Numbered from the stretch's first letter, positions 1,365 through 57,132 are shown. The stretch: DNA of 64,000 bases from a virus (IMGVR_UViG_3300044695_006401), one strand, 5' to 3'. Program-made: numbers and translations. Notes: generated from the letters alone by a model not told the origin.

Positions 1365-3185
1365 TTACTTATTCAATAAAGATTTAACTCTTTCATCTAT
1401 TTCAATCAACGAGTTTCTTCCTTTAGATAATTCTATAACATCTGCAGAATTAAATAATGACAAATCTTCCAATATTAAATCTAATCCATCTTTATTAAAA
1501 CTTTCAGGTGTTACCCCTCCAGGTTCAGGTGATGGTGAGCCTTCAGGTGGTGGTGGGGCTCCTCCGCCTAAATCTCCACCTCCCATATCCATATCACCTC
1601 CTTCAGGTGCCGCACCTCCTTCAGGTGTTGCTTCACCATCTTTTTTACCGTAAAGTTGGTCTATAGTATCAAAAAGTCCGGTTTTAGGTATACTCTCAGC
1701 AGTTTTTACAAGTTCTGCAGCCACTGCCCTTTCTACCCTTTGTTGTTGTATATCTAATCTTATTTCTTCATCTGAGAACCCTAAGATATGTTTTTTAGCC
1801 CAAGACGCTGAAACAGGGGCTACTGTGTCTGCGATAGGTGTAACTGCATCTTTATACAGAAGTATTTTTTCCTTCCATAGTTCGATTGAAAGTAATTCAG
1901 ATTGTTTAGATGGATTGTGTAAACCTAATGTGAAGTTTGTTAATTCGTCTTCAAAACCTAATAAAAAAAGATGAATAATTGCAATTTTATTTAATTCTGC
2001 AATCATAGACTTTTGAATTCTATTGATAGTTCTCGCAAAACGAATATCTAATAATGATAAATTTTTACCATCACCTACCGCCTCTTCGAATCCTAAATAA
2101 GCCTTAGGTATTCTAAGAGCTGTAACTAATTTCTTTTGAATATACTCAATGTCTGCGATTTCAGCTAAGTTCGTACCACCTGGTAATGTTTCAATAGGGT
2201 TGGTTGCTGCCGGATCACGAACAGGAATGAAATAATCTTGGTCTACCGCCATTTGATTATACCTCATATCGACATTACCTGTTGAGTGATCAACAATTTG
2301 ATCTCTTTTAAATTTATTAGCAACTCTTTGTACATATGGGTCAACATCTTTGTCGTCCATGTTACCGACAAATACTTTAAATACTCTTCTTTCAGGTGCT
2401 CTAGATACACGATAGATTAACATCGCATCTTCAGAAAGTAATAATTGTTTCCAAATTCTACGAGCCTTTTCGAGCATCGATGTACCATACGGTAGTTTTC
2501 TATCGTCACCTAAAATTCTAAAGTGTGCTACTTCCCAAGTATTGAACTCCATGTTTTTTTCCTTCCAAGTAAACTTCAAAGCGTCGTTTTCCATTTCTTG
2601 TGAGTACTTATCAGGTTGAAACCTCATCCCTTTTTCTAATCTTTCGATTTGAATGTTTGGTAGTTGTTGACATCCAACAATACCATTTTCAGGATCTAAC
2701 TTAAGATATACAAAGTTGTCACCAAACTTACATGTGTTTCTTGTCCACATTGGTAAGTTGGTGTTAATATCCAATTTATTAACAAAAAGATCGATTAATA
2801 CTGATTTTATTCTTTTTGATTCAGAATAAACTTTTAATATAAGTCCATCTTGATCTGGTGTTGTGGATTCTTCAGAATAAATGTCTAATGCCGCAGAAAT
2901 TTCAGGTGTATATTCCATAGATTCATAATCATAGTATGACGCCATTCTTGTTGGTTCATAATATACCGCTTGTTGGTATAAATTATTTTCTACTTTTTGC
3001 CATTGTTGGCCGATATACATTGTCTGCTGAGATTGTAATTTTTCTTTTTCAAACTCAGATTTATCTGTTGTCTTTAATAGCTCCTTTTTATCAAATTTGA
3101 ATACGGGAGATTGTTGGTCAAGGGTTGCATTAGGACCAAAAGTCCTACTCAATCTTTGCCACACCGTTAATTTTTGTTCTGACAT
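1365..3185 (-). CDS. portal protein (T4 gp20-like) with Gly/Pro/acidic C-terminal tail
   Basis: Motifs YR..RAPERRVFKV.VGNM, DYFIPVR, IETLPGG.NL, DIEY.QKKL..AL.IP. Confidence 0.92.
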   Translation of the reverse strand: MSEQKLTVWQRLSRTFGPNATLDQQSPVFKFDKKELLKTTDKSEFEKEKLQSQQTMYIGQQWQKVENNLYQQAVYYEPTRMASYYDYESMEYTPEISAALDIYSEESTTPDQDGLILKVYSESKRIKSVLIDLFVNKLDINTNLPMWTRNTCKFGDNFVYLKLDPENGIVGCQQLPNIQIERLEKGMRFQPDKYSQEMENDALKFTWKEKNMEFNTWEVAHFRILGDDRKLPYGTSMLEKARRIWKQLLLSEDAMLIYRVSRAPERRVFKVFVGNMDDKDVDPYVQRVANKFKRDQIVDHSTGNVDMRYNQMAVDQDYFIPVRDPAATNPIETLPGGTNLAEIADIEYIQKKLVTALRIPKAYLGFEEAVGDGKNLSLLDIRFARTINRIQKSMIAELNKIAIIHLFLLGFEDELTNFTLGLHNPSKQSELLSIELWKEKILLYKDAVTPIADTVAPVSASWAKKHILGFSDEEIRLDIQQQRVERAVAAELVKTAESIPKTGLFDTIDQLYGKKDGEATPEGGAAPEGGDMDMGGGDLGGGAPPPPEGSPSPEPGGVTPESFNKDGLDLILEDLSLFNSADVIELSKGRNSLIEIDERVKSLLNK

Positions 3186-3222
3186 AATTTTTTTCTTAAA
3201 AAATAATATGGTTAGTTATAAA

Positions 3223-4998
3223 CTAAACCCTTTTACCACTGAATAACCATAAATACTTTTCATAATCACTTTTAGTGACCGTGTTTCTCTGATATCCTGT
3301 TTGATCTCTCTGTGATACTGGTAAACTTGGATTAAAACTTGTATACTCTTTATGATAAGTATTACTTTCTACTGACCAAGAATCTAACATTGCCTTTGTT
3401 TGTTCTGTTACTTTTTCTAATTGGGCAAAAGATGTTTCAGCAACATAAATTGCTATTGCAAATGACATTATCAAGTCATCATGTTGTCCTTTTTGGTGAT
3501 CAGGTCTACCGTTTACATAAACGAATGTATTCAATTCATTAAATAACCTTTGTGATCTGACAACAAAATCATACCTTAAAGCTTCCTCAAATGATTGAAT
3601 AATTAGAACTCGTTTTGCGTTAAAATTAATACCAGGAATTTTATCATTAGCCTTTGGGTCCCACTTCCATTTATCTGCAGGGTTTACCCCATCAACATAT
3701 AAATTTTTATATCCAAGTTCTTGTAATTTTCTTGATGTTGACACTCCCATCCCTCCTGTTATATCAGTCACGATAAGGGAACCATACATAGTTCCCCACT
3801 TGAAAGCAATTTCTGCTAAAACATCGGGTGGGATTTTTCCAATATATTCTAAAACTTGTTCTCTTGAGTCAAAATCAATGATTGATATAGTACTAAAATC
3901 TTCACTATCTCCTCTTGATACATCGACACCCATAATATATTTATGACCAACAATAGGTTCTTTCCATTGCCAAAGTGCACCTCCCATAAATTTATTAACA
4001 GGTTCTTGGATGTGGTTTTCTTTTATTTTTTTCATCGTTTCAGGTGGGATAACATTGTCACCCGAACCTAAAAAATTACATTCTAATTCTTGAGAAATTT
4101 TTCTTTTGTCAAACTTTAACTTTTTGGCCATAGCCTCAAACCAAGAACTATACGGTTTGTAACCTTTATTAATTTTTTCCTTTATTTCTTCAAAGTCTCT
4201 ATTAATTACTTTGACTTCAGTATAGTCTAGTATGATTTCAGAATCATTATAATCCGCCCTATTCAACATATAGTGAACAATATCATCACACTTAATTAAT
4301 TTCAGATCCTTAGAATATCTAGGATCTCGAAACCAATACATTTCTGTTATTTTAAAGTCATTCATTCCTTTTATCGCCTGACTGTAAATTGAATAATATA
4401 TTGGATCAAATCCATTTGGTGTTGATATTACTATAACTTTACCTCCTGTAGATAGGGATGCCATACACGCTGACCAGAAATCTTCGTCCGCATTAATATA
4501 TGCTGCCTCATCAAAGATTAAGATCGTAGGTGTATACCCACGCAAAGCATCCTTAGATGTTGCAACTGCCTTTACTTCACATCCGTTAGTTAATTTAAAA
4601 TGTCTTTGTGAATTTTTTTCGTTAGAGAATGTTACACCTAACCAATTTGGCCACTGTTCAACAAAAGCTCTCACTTTATTTGCCATCTCTACAGCGGTGT
4701 CCATTTTATTTGCAATAATCAATATTTTTTCTGGTTTTGATTTTTTAGCAAATACTAACCTTTTAGATGCCCATGCGGATGTAACGGTTGAAACACCGGC
4801 TTGTCGGTATTTAAGTGCGATATTTTCTTCACACTCGTCATAATCTTTAACAAGTGTAACCTGATCATTAAAAAGTTCTAATGGAACATATTTGGACTGT
4901 GTGTTGTCGTAAGTTTGTAAATATGTTTTTAAGGCGTAAGGTGTATCATTTACACACTTAGCATACTCTAATAATATTTGTTCTTTCGATAACGACAT
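3223..4998 (-). CDS. terL: terminase large subunit (T4 gp17-like)
   Basis: Walker A-like KYRQAGVST, Walker B LIFDEAA, coupling motif ISTPNG, nuclease GVDVSRG..D and HDDL. Confidence 0.93.
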   Translation of the reverse strand: MSLSKEQILLEYAKCVNDTPYALKTYLQTYDNTQSKYVPLELFNDQVTLVKDYDECEENIALKYRQAGVSTVTSAWASKRLVFAKKSKPEKILIIANKMDTAVEMANKVRAFVEQWPNWLGVTFSNEKNSQRHFKLTNGCEVKAVATSKDALRGYTPTILIFDEAAYINADEDFWSACMASLSTGGKVIVISTPNGFDPIYYSIYSQAIKGMNDFKITEMYWFRDPRYSKDLKLIKCDDIVHYMLNRADYNDSEIILDYTEVKVINRDFEEIKEKINKGYKPYSSWFEAMAKKLKFDKRKISQELECNFLGSGDNVIPPETMKKIKENHIQEPVNKFMGGALWQWKEPIVGHKYIMGVDVSRGDSEDFSTISIIDFDSREQVLEYIGKIPPDVLAEIAFKWGTMYGSLIVTDITGGMGVSTSRKLQELGYKNLYVDGVNPADKWKWDPKANDKIPGINFNAKRVLIIQSFEEALRYDFVVRSQRLFNELNTFVYVNGRPDHQKGQHDDLIMSFAIAIYVAETSFAQLEKVTEQTKAMLDSWSVESNTYHKEYTSFNPSLPVSQRDQTGYQRNTVTKSDYEKYLWLFSGKRV

Positions 4999-8246: not shown

Positions 8247-8267
8247 ACATATAAATATGATAAAAAA

Positions 8268-8516: not shown

Positions 8517-8811
8517 CTGGTTCTCTTAATGGGGTTATGTCATCTATATGACTAAGTTTATCCATAATATAATAATGAACTTCGTCTCTGTCAACATCAA
8601 AACCATAATCCTTAATTGTTTGAAAAATCTCACGCATTTTTGGTTGGAATTCGGAGTGCAATTTTAATAAGTCTTGGGGGAAGTATCTTGGACTTGCCAA
8701 CTCTTCTTGTGTCCACCCTTCTCTTTGAAATATTTTTCTCATGTCAAAATAATTCTGTTCTAAATCTTTTGTCAATTCCAAAGTATCCACGAATTTTCTC
8801 CAAGCTTTCAT
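8497..8811 (-). CDS. hypothetical protein
   Basis: 104 aa; TATTTAT 4 nt upstream. Confidence 0.65.
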   Translation of the reverse strand: MKAWRKFVDTLELTKDLEQNYFDMRKIFQREGWTQEELASPRYFPQDLLKLHSEFQPKMREIFQTIKDYGFDVDRDEVHYYIMDKLSHIDDITPLREPDGNKKN

Positions 8812-8836
8812 AACTATAAATACTACAGATTGGCAA

Positions 8837-8867
8837 TTGATTATTATTTAACTTATGTTTAATTTTG
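8837..8867 (+). promoter_or_regulatory. Bacteroidota sigma70-type promoter (TTG-N20-TAATTTTG)
   Basis: TTG 8837-39, TAnnTTTG 8860-67, 16 nt before clp ATG. Confidence 0.7.
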
Positions 8868-8883
8868 AGTCAAATTAGAAGTT

Positions 8884-10920
8884 ATGATAGAATCCGTAGA
8901 CGAAAACGAAAAACCAAAAAACAAACCTAAAGATAGTTCCTCAAAAACCCCCGTATTAGATAATTTCTCAAGAGATCTAATTAAGGCGGCAGAAGAAGGG
9001 AAGTTGGACCCTGTGATAGGGAGAGAAAACGAGATCAATAGGATTGCTCAAATTTTATCAAGGAGAAAGAAAAACAATCCAATTATTTTAGGGGAACCGG
9101 GTTGTGGTAAAACTGCAATTGTTGAGGGACTTGCAAAAAAGATTTTTGAAGGTGATTGTCCTCAAAATTTAGCAAACAAAAGAATAGTATCGTTAGATAT
9201 GACATCAGTTGTGGCAGGGACAAAATATAGAGGTCAGTTTGAAGAGAGGATGAAGGTTATAATGGAAGAATTATATGGAAATCCCGATATTATAATTTTT
9301 ATTGATGAAATACATACTATGATTGGTGCTGGTAATTCATCAGGTTCTATGGATGCGTCAAACATATTTAAACCCGCACTTTCAAGAGGGGAACTTCAAT
9401 GTATTGGGGCGACAACTTTAGACGAATACAGAAAAAATATTGAGAAGGATGGGGCATTAGAAAGAAGATTCCAAAAAGTTATTGTTGACGCATCAACAAA
9501 AGAAGAAACATTACTAATTCTTCAACAATCCAAAGAAAGTTATGAAAATTACCACAAAGTAATTTATAGTGATGATATTATGAAACTTTGTGTGGAGTTA
9601 GCCGATAGATATATTACTGATCGTGAATTTCCAGATAAGGCATTTGATATTATTGATGAGGTTGGGGCAAGATCTCAAGTGGAAGTAAAACTTCCTGAAA
9701 TTATTGAGGACTTGAAAAAAGAAGCTTTGAAAATCAAAGAAGAAAAGTTAGATGTCATCAACAAACAAAAGTATGAGGAGGCGGCTAATTTACGAGACAA
9801 AGAAAGAAAAGTTCTTGCCGAATTAGAAAATGAGAAACAAAAATTCGAAAAGAATCGTGACATGTTTAAAAGAGAAGTGACTGAAGATGTCGTTTATGAT
9901 GTAGTTTCTTTAATGACAAAAATTCCTGTGAATAAAATATCTACAGATGAAACACAACAACTTATTTCTTTAAAAGAAAATTTGAACACAAAAGTTATTG
10001 GTCAGGATGATGCTGTAAGTAAAATAGCAAGGGCAATTCAGAGAAATAAAGTTGGTTTAAACGATCCGAAAAAACCTATTTTCAGTGGTCTGTTAATTGG
10101 TAATTCGGGAGTCGGGAAAACAGAACTCGCAAAACAATTGGCAAAACATATGTTTAACAGTGAAGACGCTTTAATCCGTTTAGACATGAGTGAGTTTTCA
10201 GATAAAATTTCAACATCCAAATTGACGGGAACATCACCAGGTTATGTGGGGTTTGAAGAGGGCTCACCATTTTTGAATAAAATCAAAAACAAGCCATACT
10301 CTGTAATTCTATTAGATGAAATAGAAAAGGCACATTCCGATATATTCAATGTTTTTTTACAGATGTTGGATGAGGGTATGTTAACAGACGGTCATGGGAG
10401 AAAAATAAATTTTAAAAATTGTATTATTCTAATGACTTCTAATGTGGGAACTAAGGTTGTACAAGATTTTGGGACGGGTGTCGGTTTTTCAACAACGGCA
10501 AAAACTGAAAGAAAAGACGATGAGATCAAAACACTTTTGGAAAAAGAGCTATTCAAAAAATTCCCGCCTGAGTTTATCAATAGATTTGATGATATAGTTT
10601 ATTTCAAAGACCTTAATAAAGAGGATTTGTTAAAAATTGTTGATTTAGAACTTAATAAATTCTACGAAAGAATTTCTAAGTTAGAGTTTTCTGTAGATGT
10701 CGATGAGACACTAAAAAAACATCTAATAGAAGTCGGAATGGATACTCGTTTTGGGGCTAGAATACTTAAAAGAACCGTACAGAAATGGATTGATGATGCA
10801 ATCACTGAAAAAATCCTTACAGATAACCCAGAAAAAGGATCAAAGTTTGTTCTTACTTATAACGAGAAGGAAAAGAAAACTGATGTTAAAATAAAAAAAC
10901 CAATTAAAAGAAAAAAATAA
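8884..10920 (+). CDS. clpC: ClpC/ClpA-type AAA+ unfoldase lacking the N-terminal Clp-repeat domain
   Basis: Two AAA modules ([14 protein letters not shown]; [17 protein letters not shown]), UVR-like M-domain ([11 protein letters not shown]), ClpP-docking VGF loop; sequence begins just before LDNFSRDL. Confidence 0.9.
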
Positions 10921-10921
10921 T

Positions 10922-10952
10922 TTTGCAAATGTTAAAAACTTTTGTACATTTG
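10922..10952 (+). promoter_or_regulatory. Bacteroidota sigma70-type promoter (TTTG-N19-TACATTTG)
   Basis: Perfect consensus and spacing; it overlaps the ORF-track start 10942, so true start is ATG 10966. Confidence 0.8.
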
Positions 10953-10965
10953 TAAAAAAACAGCA

Positions 10966-12018
10966 ATGAACATAGAAAAATTTAAAGAGCTCCTTTCAGT
11001 CCCAAGCAAGACATATCAAGAAGAAGATATGGTAGAGTTTATTTGTGACGAGTTGGGGGATATGGAAGGGGTTACTTTCTATCGTGATGTAATGATGAAC
11101 ATCTACGCGACAAAAGGTGTGTTAGAGGAAGGTGAATTTTACCCTATGTTTATTGCTCACACAGATACAGTACACAGTAAGATTGAAAAAATAGTAGTTA
11201 AAGAAGAAAAACTTGCTCGACCTTACACTTTTGGTAAATCCTTTGACAACACACCAGTTGATGTATTAAAGGCTTATGACACTAACGGTAACCCAACAGG
11301 TATTGGTGGTGATGACAAGTGTGGTATTTTTATTTGTTTAGAGTTACTAAAACAATTAGACAAAGTAAAAATTGGTTTTTTTGTTTCAGAAGAAACAGGA
11401 TGTCACGGTTCATCAAAATGTGATGAAAACTTTTTACAGAATGTTGGTTATATCACTCAATATGACGCACCTGGTAATCACTTAATTACCGAGATTTGCT
11501 CGGGAGTTCGTTTGTTTGAAAGGGAGAGTGAGTTCTTTGAAAAAACATTAGAAGTTATTACGGAATCTTTTGGTAATGAAATGTTAGTTCAATCTCACCC
11601 TTACACCGACATTTCACAACTAAAAAAGAAAATCAATGTTTCTTGCATTAACATGTCTTGTGGTTATTACAATATGCACTCAGTTCAAGAGTTTGTATCC
11701 TTAGACGATGTAAAAAATGCGATTGAAGCAGGAAAGAAGATGGTTGCAGTATTGGGACTTAAAAAATACACATACGAATATGCTCCTATCAAATATACTC
11801 CTCAATTAATAATGAATTCACTTGTGGAAGATTTAGATGAAGAAGTTTTTGATTACCCTGAAGAAACTTTTCATCGTTTAGGGAGTATAGACGCATATGA
11901 AGAAAAAGATGGTATCACATTAAGTGACGCTTATGACGATGGATTTTTATTTATCCCCGATGAGGATTTAGTAAGTCTTTATGAAATTATTAAAGAAAGA
12001 TTGATTAAAAAGTATTAA
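10966..12018 (+). CDS. zinc metallopeptidase, M28/M20/M42 clan
   Basis: AHTDTVH, GGDDK, SEETG, QYD, YYNMH..E metal-ligand pattern; start moved to MNIEKF. Confidence 0.8.
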   Translation: MNIEKFKELLSVPSKTYQEEDMVEFICDELGDMEGVTFYRDVMMNIYATKGVLEEGEFYPMFIAHTDTVHSKIEKIVVKEEKLARPYTFGKSFDNTPVDVLKAYDTNGNPTGIGGDDKCGIFICLELLKQLDKVKIGFFVSEETGCHGSSKCDENFLQNVGYITQYDAPGNHLITEICSGVRLFERESEFFEKTLEVITESFGNEMLVQSHPYTDISQLKKKINVSCINMSCGYYNMHSVQEFVSLDDVKNAIEAGKKMVAVLGLKKYTYEYAPIKYTPQLIMNSLVEDLDEEVFDYPEETFHRLGSIDAYEEKDGITLSDAYDDGFLFIPDEDLVSLYEIIKERLIKKY

Positions 12019-13163: not shown

Positions 13164-13208
13164 ATATAAATAAATATATTATTAACAACATATATTAAAA
13201 AAAAATAT

Positions 13209-13693: not shown

Positions 13694-13720
13694 AAAAAGG
13701 TGGGTATACCCACCTTTTTT
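13693..13720. terminator. bidirectional intrinsic terminator
   Basis: aaaaaaggtggg-tata-cccacctttttt perfect inverted repeat between convergent genes. Confidence 0.88.
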
Positions 13721-13740
13721 ATTAAATTAATTTAAAGTCT

Positions 13741-14094
13741 TTAACAATCGGATTTAAGGGTCCCCTTCCAATTAGGGTGATTTAAAGTTAGTTGAGAAAC
13801 CACCATGGAAGAAATAGGTTGATTACTTTCATCCACTATCTGACCAGTTTTACATGAATAAGTATAATCTTTTCCACTTCTATCATTTATCCATCCTAAA
13901 TCTTGACTCCACTGTTTTAAATCAAACCCGACTCCGTCGGCACCATTGTTTCCAGTATTAGCAATACGCATTCCTTTTCTATTTTTTTCCGCAGCTACAG
14001 AATATTGCGCCCAATCCATCACTTCTTGTTCGTTGATTACTCTGGATACGATTCTTTTCAAGTCACTTTCAGTTAATCTTACAATTTTACTCAT
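13741..14094 (-). CDS. hypothetical protein with LTESDL..IV.RVI.EQ N-terminal leader
   Basis: MSKIVRLTESDLKRIVSRVINEQ. Confidence 0.75.
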   Translation of the reverse strand: MSKIVRLTESDLKRIVSRVINEQEVMDWAQYSVAAEKNRKGMRIANTGNNGADGVGFDLKQWSQDLGWINDRSGKDYTYSCKTGQIVDESNQPISSMVVSQLTLNHPNWKGTLKSDC

Positions 14095-14166
14095 AATTAA
14101 TATTTTAATATAATTTTATTTACTATATTCTATAAGTATATTGTTTTAAGTAAAAAAATTAATTAA

Positions 14167-14198
14167 TTTGATTTTTTAGGATATAATATTTATATTTG
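14167..14198 (+). promoter_or_regulatory. tmRNA promoter: TTTG-N20-TATATTTG, overlapping a TATTTAT motif (14187-14193)
   Basis: Consensus host promoter 36 nt upstream of mature tmRNA 5' end. Confidence 0.75.
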
Positions 14199-14234
14199 TA
14201 TTATTATTCTTTGAAGTAGTCAATTAAGATATAT

Positions 14235-14652
14235 GGGCCTATATTGGATTTGACGGGCGTTGGTTGAATAAAAGAAGCATGTCGGGACTGAATTAATCTC
14301 GTTAAAAACTGATTCGAACAACAACTGGCAATGTGCTAAACAACCTTGAGACTTTGGGACTTATCTCAACTCAAGAAGTTACTGTAGCTTAATTTAAGTA
14401 CGGAAACGGGGGGTCGGTGGATACATAACCTAGCAACAGAAATCCTTAAGGTGTGGTTTCTACCCAAAAAGAAACAAACGGTCTCGTTCAGAGGTCTACC
14501 GTAACAAAAGTGAACTCGACACAGTTTTTGGTAACGATGTTAAAATAGGAACCAAATATTTTGGAAGGTATGAAAAACCTTATCCTAAACATGTAGTTGT
14601 CTCTTAGACAAGACGAGCCGGACGAGGGAGTCGGAGCCCTCTAGGTCCACCA
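14235..14652 (+). ncRNA. ssrA: tmRNA (418 nt)
   Basis: Acceptor GGGCCTA/TAGGTCC+ACCA with G3:U70; GGATTTGAC D-loop-like motif; GCATGT/ACATGT helix 2; PK1 (CGGGA/TCTCG and GAATTA/TGATTC); GGAC-GAGGG/CCCTC T-arm. Confidence 0.93.
14327..14392 (+). other. tmRNA tag reading frame (A)GNVLNNLETLGLISTQEVTVA*
   Basis: AACT-GGC resume context after PK1 as in Bacteroidota tmRNAs (Gly resume codon); 21 codons then TAA. Confidence 0.7.
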
Positions 14653-14656
14653 ATTA

Positions 14657-14691
14657 ATCCCATCATTTAATTATGGTGGGATATTTTTTTT
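14657..14691 (+). terminator. intrinsic terminator after tmRNA
   Basis: ATCCCATCAT-ttaatt-ATGGTGGGAT stem then T-run. Confidence 0.8.
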
Positions 14692-14710
14692 AAAATATTT
14701 TTAAAAGTGT

Positions 14711-14740
14711 TTTGCAAATCAAAAAAAGGTCTTATCTTTG
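14711..14740 (+). promoter_or_regulatory. Bacteroidota promoter TTTG-N18-TATCTTTG
   Basis: Consensus elements; covers ORF-track TTG start 14712, so true start is ATG 14778. Confidence 0.7.
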
Positions 14741-14777
14741 TAGTGTAATCATTCATAAACCCTTTAAACCAAATAAC

Positions 14778-15221
14778 ATGAAAAATTTATTGACCTTAGT
14801 TTTCGCATTATTCTCAACAATTACTGTTTTCTCTCAAGCAAATTTGAACTTCCATACTTTGGGTGGTTTTGATTATTTTGACATTACAAATAAAAATATC
14901 AATCCTGAGGATCTTTTAAAGGGTAAGACTGTGGGTCAAGTTCTACAATCAGATGGATTTAATCTTTACGAGATCAACTTAGATAAAAAAACATTGACCC
15001 ACAATTATATTACTTTGGAATCGGGATCAAAAGACCGTAAAGAAGTGGTATACAAGATTACAAATTTGGAAGATGAGACATACTTTACAAAATTTGATGT
15101 TGTGACTGAAGATTTTGGTACGATGACTTTTGTAATTAATAAAATGAAATCAACAAACAAAGATTTGATTGTAGTCTTCAAAGATAATAACCGTACTTAC
15201 GCGGCAGTAGTAAATATGTAA
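14778..15221 (+). CDS. secreted hypothetical protein (SPI signal, Gln at +1), probable paralog of 13253..13693
   Basis: MKNLLTLVFALFSTITVFS|Q; INPEDLL vs ISPKDLL. Confidence 0.75.
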   Translation: MKNLLTLVFALFSTITVFSQANLNFHTLGGFDYFDITNKNINPEDLLKGKTVGQVLQSDGFNLYEINLDKKTLTHNYITLESGSKDRKEVVYKITNLEDETYFTKFDVVTEDFGTMTFVINKMKSTNKDLIVVFKDNNRTYAAVVNM

Positions 15222-15231
15222 TATTACCCAA

Positions 15232-15266
15232 AACAAAAAAACCCTCTTTTCGGAGGGTTTTTTGTT
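15232..15266. terminator. bidirectional intrinsic terminator
   Basis: aacaaaaaaaccctc-ttttcg-gagggttttttgtt between convergent genes. Confidence 0.85.
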
Positions 15267-15281
15267 CAATTAGTTTTTTAA

Positions 15282-15755
15282 TTATTTTGACATTGATAAT
15301 GCTTTTTTAGCATCTCCAATGTAATTTACAGCATTTCCTGCAGTTGGTGAACTAGGTTGACCTTTAGATTGACAAAAATTTCTAACCATTTTATCTACTA
15401 CACTACCTCTTCCAAAAACATAAGTACTACCACCTTCGAAAACATCCGCAGAACTTCTTGGACTTAATGCCCCTGGATTGGCGCTAGGACCACATGCGGC
15501 ATAAAGAACAATGTTTCCTTTTGTTACAGGAGATCCATTATCTTTGATTCTAACTCCGTTGAATTTAACCTGAGCAGTCACTGTTCCCTTGTAACCTGAA
15601 CCACCAGCGATAGTTGGTTGAGAAAGTACAATAGCGTAATCTTGCATATCACGACTATATCCAGCATCAATAACAGCTGGTGTAGTTTGTTCCTCGATTA
15701 CTCTTTTTACGATATTAACTAAATCGGATTCAGTTAGTCTAACAATTTTTTTCAT
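15282..15755 (-). CDS. hypothetical protein with LTESDL..IV.RVI.EQ N-terminal leader
   Basis: MKKIVRLTESDLVNIVKRVIEEQ. Confidence 0.75.
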   Translation of the reverse strand: MKKIVRLTESDLVNIVKRVIEEQTTPAVIDAGYSRDMQDYAIVLSQPTIAGGSGYKGTVTAQVKFNGVRIKDNGSPVTKGNIVLYAACGPSANPGALSPRSSADVFEGGSTYVFGRGSVVDKMVRNFCQSKGQPSSPTAGNAVNYIGDAKKALSMSK

Positions 15756-46225: not shown

Positions 46226-46240
46226 ACAGATAAATACCTC

Positions 46241-57112: not shown

Positions 57113-57132
57113 ATCTATAAATAGTATATAAA

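Follow-up and report, generated by a model that had tools for sequence, protein, structure and literature searches.

Complete ssrA genes, which encode transfer-messenger RNA (tmRNA), have been described in several groups of phages. They are known from Bxz1-like mycobacteriophages and Bacillus phage G (PMC4131195), and an ARAGORN survey of 18,146 phage genomes found tmRNA in 402, among them marine phages, such as the OM43 phage Melnitz and the pelagimyophages, with a two-piece form (PMC9004378). Huge phages also carry tmRNA, some of them together with SmpB (PMC7162821), and the largest tmRNA database draws on NCBI genomes and RefSeq viruses searched with ARAGORN and Rfam (PMC11915505). In this study, we analyzed a stretch of 64,000 nucleotides (nt) of viral DNA (IMGVR_UViG_3300044695_006401), referred to as the window over its full length, and in it a one-piece tmRNA gene that is probably functional: the best-supported reading is that this phage-encoded RNA carries out trans-translation with the help of host factors. 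The gene is a variant of the phage tmRNAs already known, with a tag peptide and a T-loop that belong to its own family. As in the described cases, a complete ssrA is found in large, mostly lytic phages of the myovirus type; those tmRNAs have been proposed to sustain hijacked translation or to recycle proteins, roles that we also propose here. Like some of the huge phages, about 30 relatives of the window phage encode SmpB. In contrast to the window family, with its own tag and T-loop variants, the known phage tmRNAs resemble those of a bacterial lineage and were mostly found with ARAGORN.

The window comes from an uncultured T4-like lake phage. It encodes a portal and a large terminase of the T4 type, a double AAA+ protein of the ClpC/ClpA type and a pyrimidine-dimer glycosylase, and megablast and blastn searches against 50,697 deposited phage records gave no match to it.

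The tmRNA gene, its relatives and its tag

The Rfam tmRNA model (RF00023) matches the window at 14235-14652 (+) with 71.5 bits (gathering score 47, E 7.6e-26, model positions 1-374), which is exactly where an earlier note on this DNA, made from the sequence alone, had placed a phage-borne tmRNA. No open reading frame (ORF) of at least 50 residues overlaps the gene in the window. The note had named Rfam and ARAGORN as checks, and only the first recovered the gene, at full length. ARAGORN detected no tmRNA in the window, and none either when a canonical 7-nt T-loop was swapped into the gene in silico, so the T-loop alone does not explain the miss. This program misses the whole branch of the family that shares the 8-nt T-loop of the window gene (30 genes) and 22 of the 34 family members with a 7-nt loop. 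It is important to note that ARAGORN was used in the cited surveys of phage tmRNAs, which therefore undercount this family.

Relatives were collected in two ways. A search with the identical 22-nt T-arm retrieved 38 IMG/VR contigs, and all 18 of those scanned with Rfam contain full-length tmRNAs scoring 69-99 bits; the 26 distinct tmRNA sequences aligned from this set (alignment A1) are the source of the pairing and compensation counts given below. An alignment of the neighboring peptidase (A2) led to 584 viral contigs, from which 79 new loci were kept. A tmRNA matching the family profile is present in 66 of these, and the contigs of the remaining 13 break off at most about 1.8 kb past the peptidase gene on its downstream side, so we read these loci as stopping short of the place where the tmRNA is expected. 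Together, the two sets comprise 64 distinct tmRNA genes, all from uncultured lake phages, 30 with an 8-nt and 34 with a 7-nt T-loop. Exactly one tmRNA above the Rfam gathering score is found in each of five large related contigs of the 8-nt class. When the phage profile was run with nhmmer against 120 bacterial tmRNAs that share the T-stem of the window gene, no score exceeded 21 bits, and hence no donor lineage emerges. These results confirm that the window contains a real, selected and phage-specific tmRNA variant.

The tag, too, gives evidence for a working gene. Across the 64 genes the frame predicted in the window is maintained, with GGC as resume codon in 62, an A at position -4 in 63 and TAA as stop codon in 62. 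Although the RNA has diverged strongly, the frame has kept a length of 21 codons in 63 genes; the one exception has 22. The 22 distinct peptides follow a single pattern, G-[NDE]-[VT]-[LFI]-x-[KN]-[LM]-x-x-[LVI]-G-L-[LIV]-x-x-x-[EQ]-V-x-V-A. Entropy at the three codon positions is 0.91, 0.46 and 1.12, the third being the most variable and the second the least, and synonymous changes make up 33% of the codon differences in frame as opposed to 15% and 2% in the shifted frames. This coding-type substitution pattern argues that selection acts on the long tag as a translated peptide. Both halves of the frame (codons 1-12 and 13-21) show it, the synonymous share being 0.36-0.37 in frame and no higher than 0.17 and 0.03 in the two shifted frames; because codons 1-12 carry the signal as well, translation would begin at or near the predicted resume codon and not at a later alanine codon. 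ARAGORN calls the full 21-residue tag in four relatives and proposes a later alanine-codon start for seven others. The resume frame and the 21-residue tag predicted in the earlier note, which ends in QEVTVA in the window, are thus correct and conserved at the peptide level, and the note's statement that the tag differs from the short host type is likewise correct: among 102 bacterial tmRNAs sharing the T-stem, mostly from Bacteroidota, 85 encode 9-residue tags, of which GENNYALAA is the commonest. No tag-like motif was found elsewhere in the six frames of the window.

The first half of the tag is conserved and amphipathic, and its G11-L12 is invariant. At the C-terminus V18, V20 and A21 are nearly invariant, with one tag (L237) ending in Y-A-A. 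A non-polar, alanine-terminated C-terminus is typical of ssrA degrons. The end of the window tag, V-T-V-A, has this character yet is not LAA, and by its sequence it appears to resemble ssrA-type degrons more closely than the blunted tag that had been suspected.

Long tags have a bacterial parallel. Gur and Sauer reportedly found in 2008 that the long ssrA tags of Mycoplasma switched the tag protease from ClpXP to Lon. The phage tags are, like those, about twice the usual length, with a sequence that would be tuned to a different recognizer; unlike them, they share no sequence similarity with the Mycoplasma tags and belong to a virus whose hosts keep the short tag, whereas the Mycoplasma case concerns a bacterial lineage that lost ClpXP. 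Tags of tmRNAs are usually read as lineage-specific bacterial degrons, and here a virus-specific peptide is conserved across uncultured phage genomes numbering in the hundreds. Since this peptide is conserved and unrelated to the host tag, it suggests that phages can re-address the products of ribosome rescue, beyond boosting rescue capacity. Our literature search found no description of this tag family, of an 8-nt T-loop in a tmRNA or of the linkage between GOLLD RNA, smpB and tmRNA reported below.

RNA structure and the T-loop

The RNA is built like a one-piece tmRNA of Bacteroidota. The two have in common the 7-base-pair (bp) acceptor stem with G3:U70, the ACCA end, the GG of the D-loop analogue, a long helix 2, pseudoknot 1 (PK1) before the tag, a glycine resume codon preceded by an A at -4, a stop codon within helix 5 and a Bacteroidota-type promoter; more than 120 bacterial tmRNAs, most of them from Bacteroidota, have the very same T-stem, GAGGG/CCCUC. 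The window gene differs from them in its 21-residue tag ending in EVTVA in place of the 9-residue GENNYALAA type, in an 8-nt T-loop (AGUCGGAG) in place of the 7-nt UUCGAnU, in its Rfam score (71.5 versus 108-153 bits) and in residing in a phage without smpB. The coordinates of all these elements and of the surrounding features are collected in Table 1.

Table 1. Features of the tmRNA locus, with positions counted from the first nucleotide of the window.
Feature	Position	Strand	Basis
ClpC/ClpA-type double-AAA+ unfoldase without N-domain	8884..10920	+	Pfam AAA_2, AAA_lid_9, ClpB_D2-small; phrog_4871
M20/M28/M42-like metallopeptidase	10942..12018	+	Pfam; phrog_4191; relative in 584 viral contigs
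Acidic orphan protein of 382 residues	12015..13163	-	Between peptidase and tmRNA in nearly all loci
Predicted Bacteroidota-type promoter: -33 TTTG (14167-14170), 20-nt spacer, -7 box TATATTTG (14191-14198)	14167..14198	+	Sequence and relatives
TATTTAT, phage promoter-like element (candidate late type), overlapping the -7 box	14187..14193	+	Motif enrichment in the window
One-piece tmRNA gene (ssrA) of standard form, 418 nt with the encoded CCA counted	14235..14652	+	RF00023 full model; 64 distinct relatives
Acceptor stem, 5' strand GGGCCUA, pairing with 14642-14648 and forming G3:U70	14235..14241	+	100% paired in 26 sequences
D-loop analogue GGAUUUGAC, GG at 14246-14247	14246..14254	+	Invariant or nearly so in A1
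Helix 2, 5' strand	14255..14283	+	Alifold consensus, pairs with 14589-14619
PK1, stems CGGGA/UCUCG and UGAAUU/GAUUCG	14283..14316	+	Pairing in A1
Tag frame: resume codon GGC, 21 codons, stop TAA (14390-14392), tag (A)GNVLNNLETLGLISTQEVTVA	14327..14392	+	Frame conservation and codon pattern
Helix 5 hairpin holding the stop codon, CUUAA/UUAAG	14388..14398	+	Read from the sequence
Pseudoknot-rich body (PK2-PK4)	14399..14588	+	A1 columns 170-345; H-type pairings by eye
Helix 2, 3' strand, including 14597-14611	14589..14619	+	Alifold consensus
T-arm, 5-bp stem GAGGG/CCCUC, 8-nt loop AGUCGGAG (14629-14636)	14624..14641	+	Identical in 38 viral contigs
Acceptor stem, 3' strand UAGGUCC, discriminator A and encoded CCA	14642..14652	+	Read from the sequence
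Intrinsic terminator directly after the CCA, 10-bp stem and T-run	14657..14692	+	Stem covaries among relatives

Covariation supports this architecture. Over the acceptor stem, helix 2 and PK1 together, 99-100% of the pairings are kept and 18 of the 38 pairs have changed on both sides. The 7 bp of the acceptor stem are always paired, with double-sided changes at four of them and an invariant G:U at the third; the consensus computed with alifold gives the canonical long helix 2, in which 99% of cells pair and compensatory changes affect 9 of the 20 pairs; and both stems of PK1, which lies directly upstream of the resume codon, are fully paired, 5 of their 11 pairs having double-sided changes. 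The alanine identity elements and PK1 are therefore intact, as the earlier note had stated. In helix 5, three relatives (L013, L027 and L033) show a compensatory change from U-A to C-G. The D-loop analogue is the same in relatives of both loop classes. An encoded CCA is present in all 30 distinct genes with an 8-nt loop and in 19 of the 34 with a 7-nt loop, counts that are not phylogenetically independent. The body that follows the tag is modular, with at least three alternative versions among the relatives; the H-type pairings of PK2-PK4 are plausible by eye only, and the posterior probability of the Rfam alignment is low there. An extra hairpin had also been proposed in helix 2. Its letters, TTGTCT-CTT-AGACAA, are indeed present at 14597-14611, but these bases form the canonical 3' strand of helix 2, and the hairpin is not conserved, with 81% of cells paired across the relatives and no consistent compensation. 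It is a by-product of the helix 2 sequence in the window phage and not an additional element.

Few parts of tmRNA are as highly conserved as the T-loop (PMC1168896). That of the window gene had been described as non-canonical and 8 nt long, and it proves to be conserved in this form, with the identical T-arm in 38 contigs. The gene has a 5-bp T-stem and lacks the canonical 7-nt loop (UUCRANY); such a loop is a highly conserved trait of tmRNAs but not a defining one, and the place of the gene among them stands by descent, since sister genes with ordinary UUCGAnU-type loops share its tag, PK1, synteny and promoter. Within the 8-nt class, AGUCGGAG is found in 29 genes and AGUCAGAG in one, over four covarying stems (GAGGG/CCCUC, GUGGG/CCCAC, GAGGA/UCCUC and GUGAG/CUCAC).

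We searched for this loop outside phages. A loop-specific 8-nt pattern had no matches when one genome was searched for each of 185,579 species of bacteria and archaea, and more than 120 genomes, mostly of Bacteroidota, contain the GAGGG/CCCUC stem with a canonical loop. Among 401 sampled Bacteroidota genomes, the 7-nt T-arm pattern matched 365, with genuine T-arms, and the 8-nt T-arm pattern matched 88, approximately the level of a reversed-pattern control; the 8-nt strings listed lack complementary stems, save for one that is probably due to chance and whose genome contains a normal tmRNA as well. The constancy of AGUCGGAG over covarying stems, the 7-nt loops of the sister genes and the genome searches thus point to an 8-nt loop that is restricted to phages as far as searched, derived within the phage family and held by selection. 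As the same tag occurs with both loop classes, tag and T-loop are separate innovations, and the view that they came as one package has to be given up: the long tag is an ancestral trait of the family and the 8-nt T-loop is later. At least five switches of loop type have to be assumed on a tree of the tmRNA bodies, in which a deep clade of 7-nt genes includes one gene with the 8-nt loop (L031). Given the visible mosaicism of the gene, we conclude neither a single nor a multiple origin of the 8-nt loop.

Other relatives depart from the standard T-arm as well. Three tmRNA 3' ends (L269, L275 and L289) have a 16-nt palindromic T-arm with the core GGCUUCGAAGCC, a second departure within the family, which can be drawn as a 5-bp stem with a 6-nt loop or as a 4-bp stem with an 8-nt loop. 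In two further contigs, a group I intron (RF00028) interrupts the T-loop region of the tmRNA (L181:8638-8890 (+), 92.7 bits; L231:9920-10136 (+), 67.9 bits), an intron-bearing form known from bacteria and found here in phages; such an intron might conceivably have left the 8-nt loop as a scar. The tRNA-like elbow is unusually plastic in this phage family. The 8-nt loop, and the 6-nt loop of the relatives, constitute a natural experiment on how far the T-loop/D-loop elbow may change in an RNA that must still pass alanyl-tRNA synthetase (AlaRS), SmpB, EF-Tu, RNase P and the ribosome.

Probable trans-translation and competing explanations

If the RNA is a functional tmRNA, it would, after removal of its 5' leader, be charged with alanine by the host AlaRS through G3:U70, and host SmpB and EF-Tu would take it to ribosomes stalled on the broken mRNAs of lytic infection. 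Translation would resume at the GGC at 14327 and append (A)GNVLNNLETLGLISTQEVTVA. In this way, the phage would keep ribosomes free and mark unfinished proteins with its own signal instead of a host tag of the GENNYALAA type. Given its amphipathic first half and its hydrophobic, alanine-terminated end, the tag would most likely still be recognized by an ATP-dependent protease. The T-loop of 8 nt would represent a derived tRNA-like elbow, selected in this branch and still compatible with function.

The dependence on host factors follows the gene content of these phages. The earlier note had reported no smpB in the window, in agreement with our tblastn searches of it with three Bacteroidota SmpB proteins (best E 1.0), and SmpB, ClpP and AlaRS were not found in the five large 8-nt-loop contigs, one of which is 272 kb long and 93% complete. 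Other lineages of the family do encode SmpB. In the contig L204, an smpB gene (8759-9208, minus strand; Pfam SmpB 150.9 bits; 48-57% identity to Bacteroidota SmpB) lies 97 nt from a convergent 7-nt-loop tmRNA of the same family. A search with its product yielded 73 viral loci, and in about 30 of them (among L261-L299, on contigs of up to 322 kb) smpB is located 0.1-1.5 kb from a tmRNA of this family whose tag is of the same type, for example GNVLDKMSAIGLIRAEEVVVA or the 22-residue GNVLNKMALVGLVRQDELVNVA. That some lineages encode their own SmpB is the best indirect evidence that the RNAs of this family perform trans-translation.

The phage trans-translation genes adjoin GOLLD RNA (RF02032, 268-327 bits). 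We found GOLLD in all 12 smpB loci that were scanned (L262, L266, L268, L269, L271, L274, L275, L281, L283, L285, L286 and L289). In six smpB loci, GOLLD and smpB share a strand and are separated by 62-70 nt, GOLLD being upstream, and a convergent tmRNA follows; in L274, the three are at 2530-2936 (+), 3001-3438 (+) and 3933-4348 (-), respectively. GOLLD also occurs at L204 and, about 0.1-1 kb from the tmRNA, in 9 of 18 loci of the 8-nt class (L021-L038), and the window contains none at the gathering score. Our literature search found no account linking GOLLD with SmpB or with phage tmRNA, and the arrangement provides a testable lead for the function of GOLLD.

Several points weigh against a functional tmRNA that depends on the host. 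Its support comes from sequence and comparison, both phage and host being uncultured. The Rfam score is well under that of Bacteroidota tmRNAs, and the tag matches no known degron. With eight nucleotides and no UUC, the T-loop could interfere with processing, with binding to SmpB or with the fit to the ribosome, and host SmpB may not accept it; the tmRNAs linked to smpB have 7-nt loops or the palindromic arm with a 6-nt loop, and never an 8-nt loop. As a point in favor of a functional RNA, part of the gene is present in six metatranscriptome runs from four studies, and contigs from four of the runs, one per study, cover 14240-14621, several of them being identical to the window; it is important to consider that such contigs show neither ends, strand nor level, and that DNA carry-over is possible. 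Over 13700-15300, no RNA-library contig lies on 13700-14239 or 14672-15300 or covers the first 5 nt or the T-arm of the gene. The runs were chosen because they hold the gene, and their bare flanks are thus no evidence of a discrete RNA or of its ends.

Among the other explanations, the one that survives best, although we consider it unlikely, is a private tag-and-degrade module in which a phage ClpC-type unfoldase working on host ClpP would read the tag and an aminopeptidase-like enzyme would finish the peptides, channeling rescue products into phage-controlled recycling and not into the host ClpXP route. The order of genes for the ClpC-like protein, the peptidase, the orphan protein and the tmRNA is maintained in about 30 loci, with identity falling to 46-63% for ClpC and to 23-39% for the orphan, and wherever the DNA downstream of the peptidase gene is long enough, in 66 loci, the tmRNA is present. 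Besides its two Walker A motifs, the ClpC-like protein has a GYVG pore loop and a GVGF loop like those that dock on ClpP; ClpP itself was not found in the phages, so the partner would have to come from the host. The phage tag is wholly different from that of the host. This gene order fits a module for rescue and recycling, but it may only reflect inheritance within one phage clade, which has no member lacking one of the parts. Moreover, the relatives that bear SmpB have their tmRNA beside smpB and GOLLD, and the GVGF loop is known by motif only.

A wider version of this proposal, which we hold to be rather improbable, is that a clade of giant freshwater phages of Bacteroidota runs a trans-translation of its own, combining the private tag with phage proteolysis (together with host ClpP), a remodeled elbow, with T-loops of 8 or 6 nt, by which some host or phage factor would tell the RNA from host tmRNA, and the linkage to smpB and GOLLD. 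Were it true, GOLLD would gain its first functional lead, namely ribosome rescue.

It is doubtful that the tag serves rescue without destruction, as no degron or a weak one, so that the phage's own truncated products would be spared from host ClpXP or used in sequestration or assembly. Such a role would suit a tag without the YALAA or LAA end of host tags, in which the amphipathic first half and the invariant G11-L12 look more like a binding motif than a minimal degron. However, the strict V-x-V-A end (Y-A-A in L237) preserves the non-polar, alanine-terminated character of ssrA tags, and the conservation of a 21-residue peptide argues for some recognizer.

A decoy RNA that titrates host SmpB or blocks host trans-translation, its altered T-loop disabling normal function, seems very unlikely. 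The 8-nt loop departs from a highly conserved element (PMC1168896), the five large contigs with this loop lack smpB, and mycobacteriophage DS6A offers a precedent in an RNA reduced to the tRNA-like domain (PMC4131195, PMC11915505), which is also phage-borne and tmRNA-derived and could interfere with host trans-translation. A decoy needs no frame, and yet conservation with a coding signature extends to the frame and its length, to PK1, to the A at -4 and to the helix 5 stop, the frame being the same in genes of both loop classes; the DS6A RNA, in contrast, has neither tag frame nor pseudoknots, which the window gene keeps under selection. Finally, that the gene is a decaying relic or an integration-site copy of host ssrA, as could be thought from its low Rfam score relative to bacterial tmRNAs and from the frequent use of ssrA 3' ends as phage attachment sites (PMC9004378), is hardly credible for a full-length gene with its own promoter and terminator, conserved with compensatory changes in 66 of 66 testable relatives, scoring at most 21 bits with nhmmer against 120 sampled bacterial tmRNAs and located in a T4-like, lytic genomic context.

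Expression signals and neighboring genes

The tmRNA gene forms a transcription unit of its own: a promoter of the Bacteroidota type precedes it and an intrinsic terminator follows. The arrangement TTTG, about 20 nt and TAnnTTTG is found upstream of nearly all of the approximately 60 distinct relatives, and it corresponds to the -33/-7 promoter pattern of Bacteroidota sigma-A. In the window, it predicts a leader of about 30 nt that would be removed to give the mature 5' end. Between promoter and mature 5' end, both loop classes have a conserved leader motif, GTTCTTTGAAAAT (L025, L002 and L179 are examples), which may be a processing or regulatory site; genes with the 8-nt loop have about 17-20 nt of additional leader after it.

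The suggestion that host-type and TATTTAT promoter elements overlap at this gene holds in part. The promoter of host type is conserved, and TATTTAT probably serves the phage as a promoter element, as it is enriched within 60 nt upstream of the genes of the window (17 of 46, versus 1.7% of random 60-mers). It lies 9-22 nt upstream of the start codons of many genes on their own strand (for instance at 1358-1364, 8251-8257, 13166-13176, 46230-46236 and 57117-57123, all on the minus strand), and it is a candidate for the late-promoter element of this phage, akin to TATAAATA of T4. Its overlap with the -7 box, on the other hand, is missing in most relatives, where TATTATATTTG is read instead and a palindrome containing TATTTAT is situated further upstream, adjoining the divergent orphan gene. 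Expression of the tmRNA both early and late is plausible from these motifs.

The orphan protein, transcribed divergently from the tmRNA in the relatives, has no match in Pfam, in PHROG or among Atlas features. Its AlphaFold2 model reaches a predicted local distance difference test (pLDDT) score of 91 and a predicted template modeling (pTM) score of 0.80; a Foldseek search of the model against PDB and BFVD gave nothing at E <= 0.001, and VIA-align reached a Z of 6.0 at best, for generic helices. The model is compatible with a possible new fold. We also considered the orphan as a stand-in for SmpB, which nothing suggests. Just downstream of the terminator, an ORF without a family match (14712-15221, plus strand) begins with a hydrophobic N-terminus that resembles a signal peptide (MKNLLTLVFALFSTITVFSQ).

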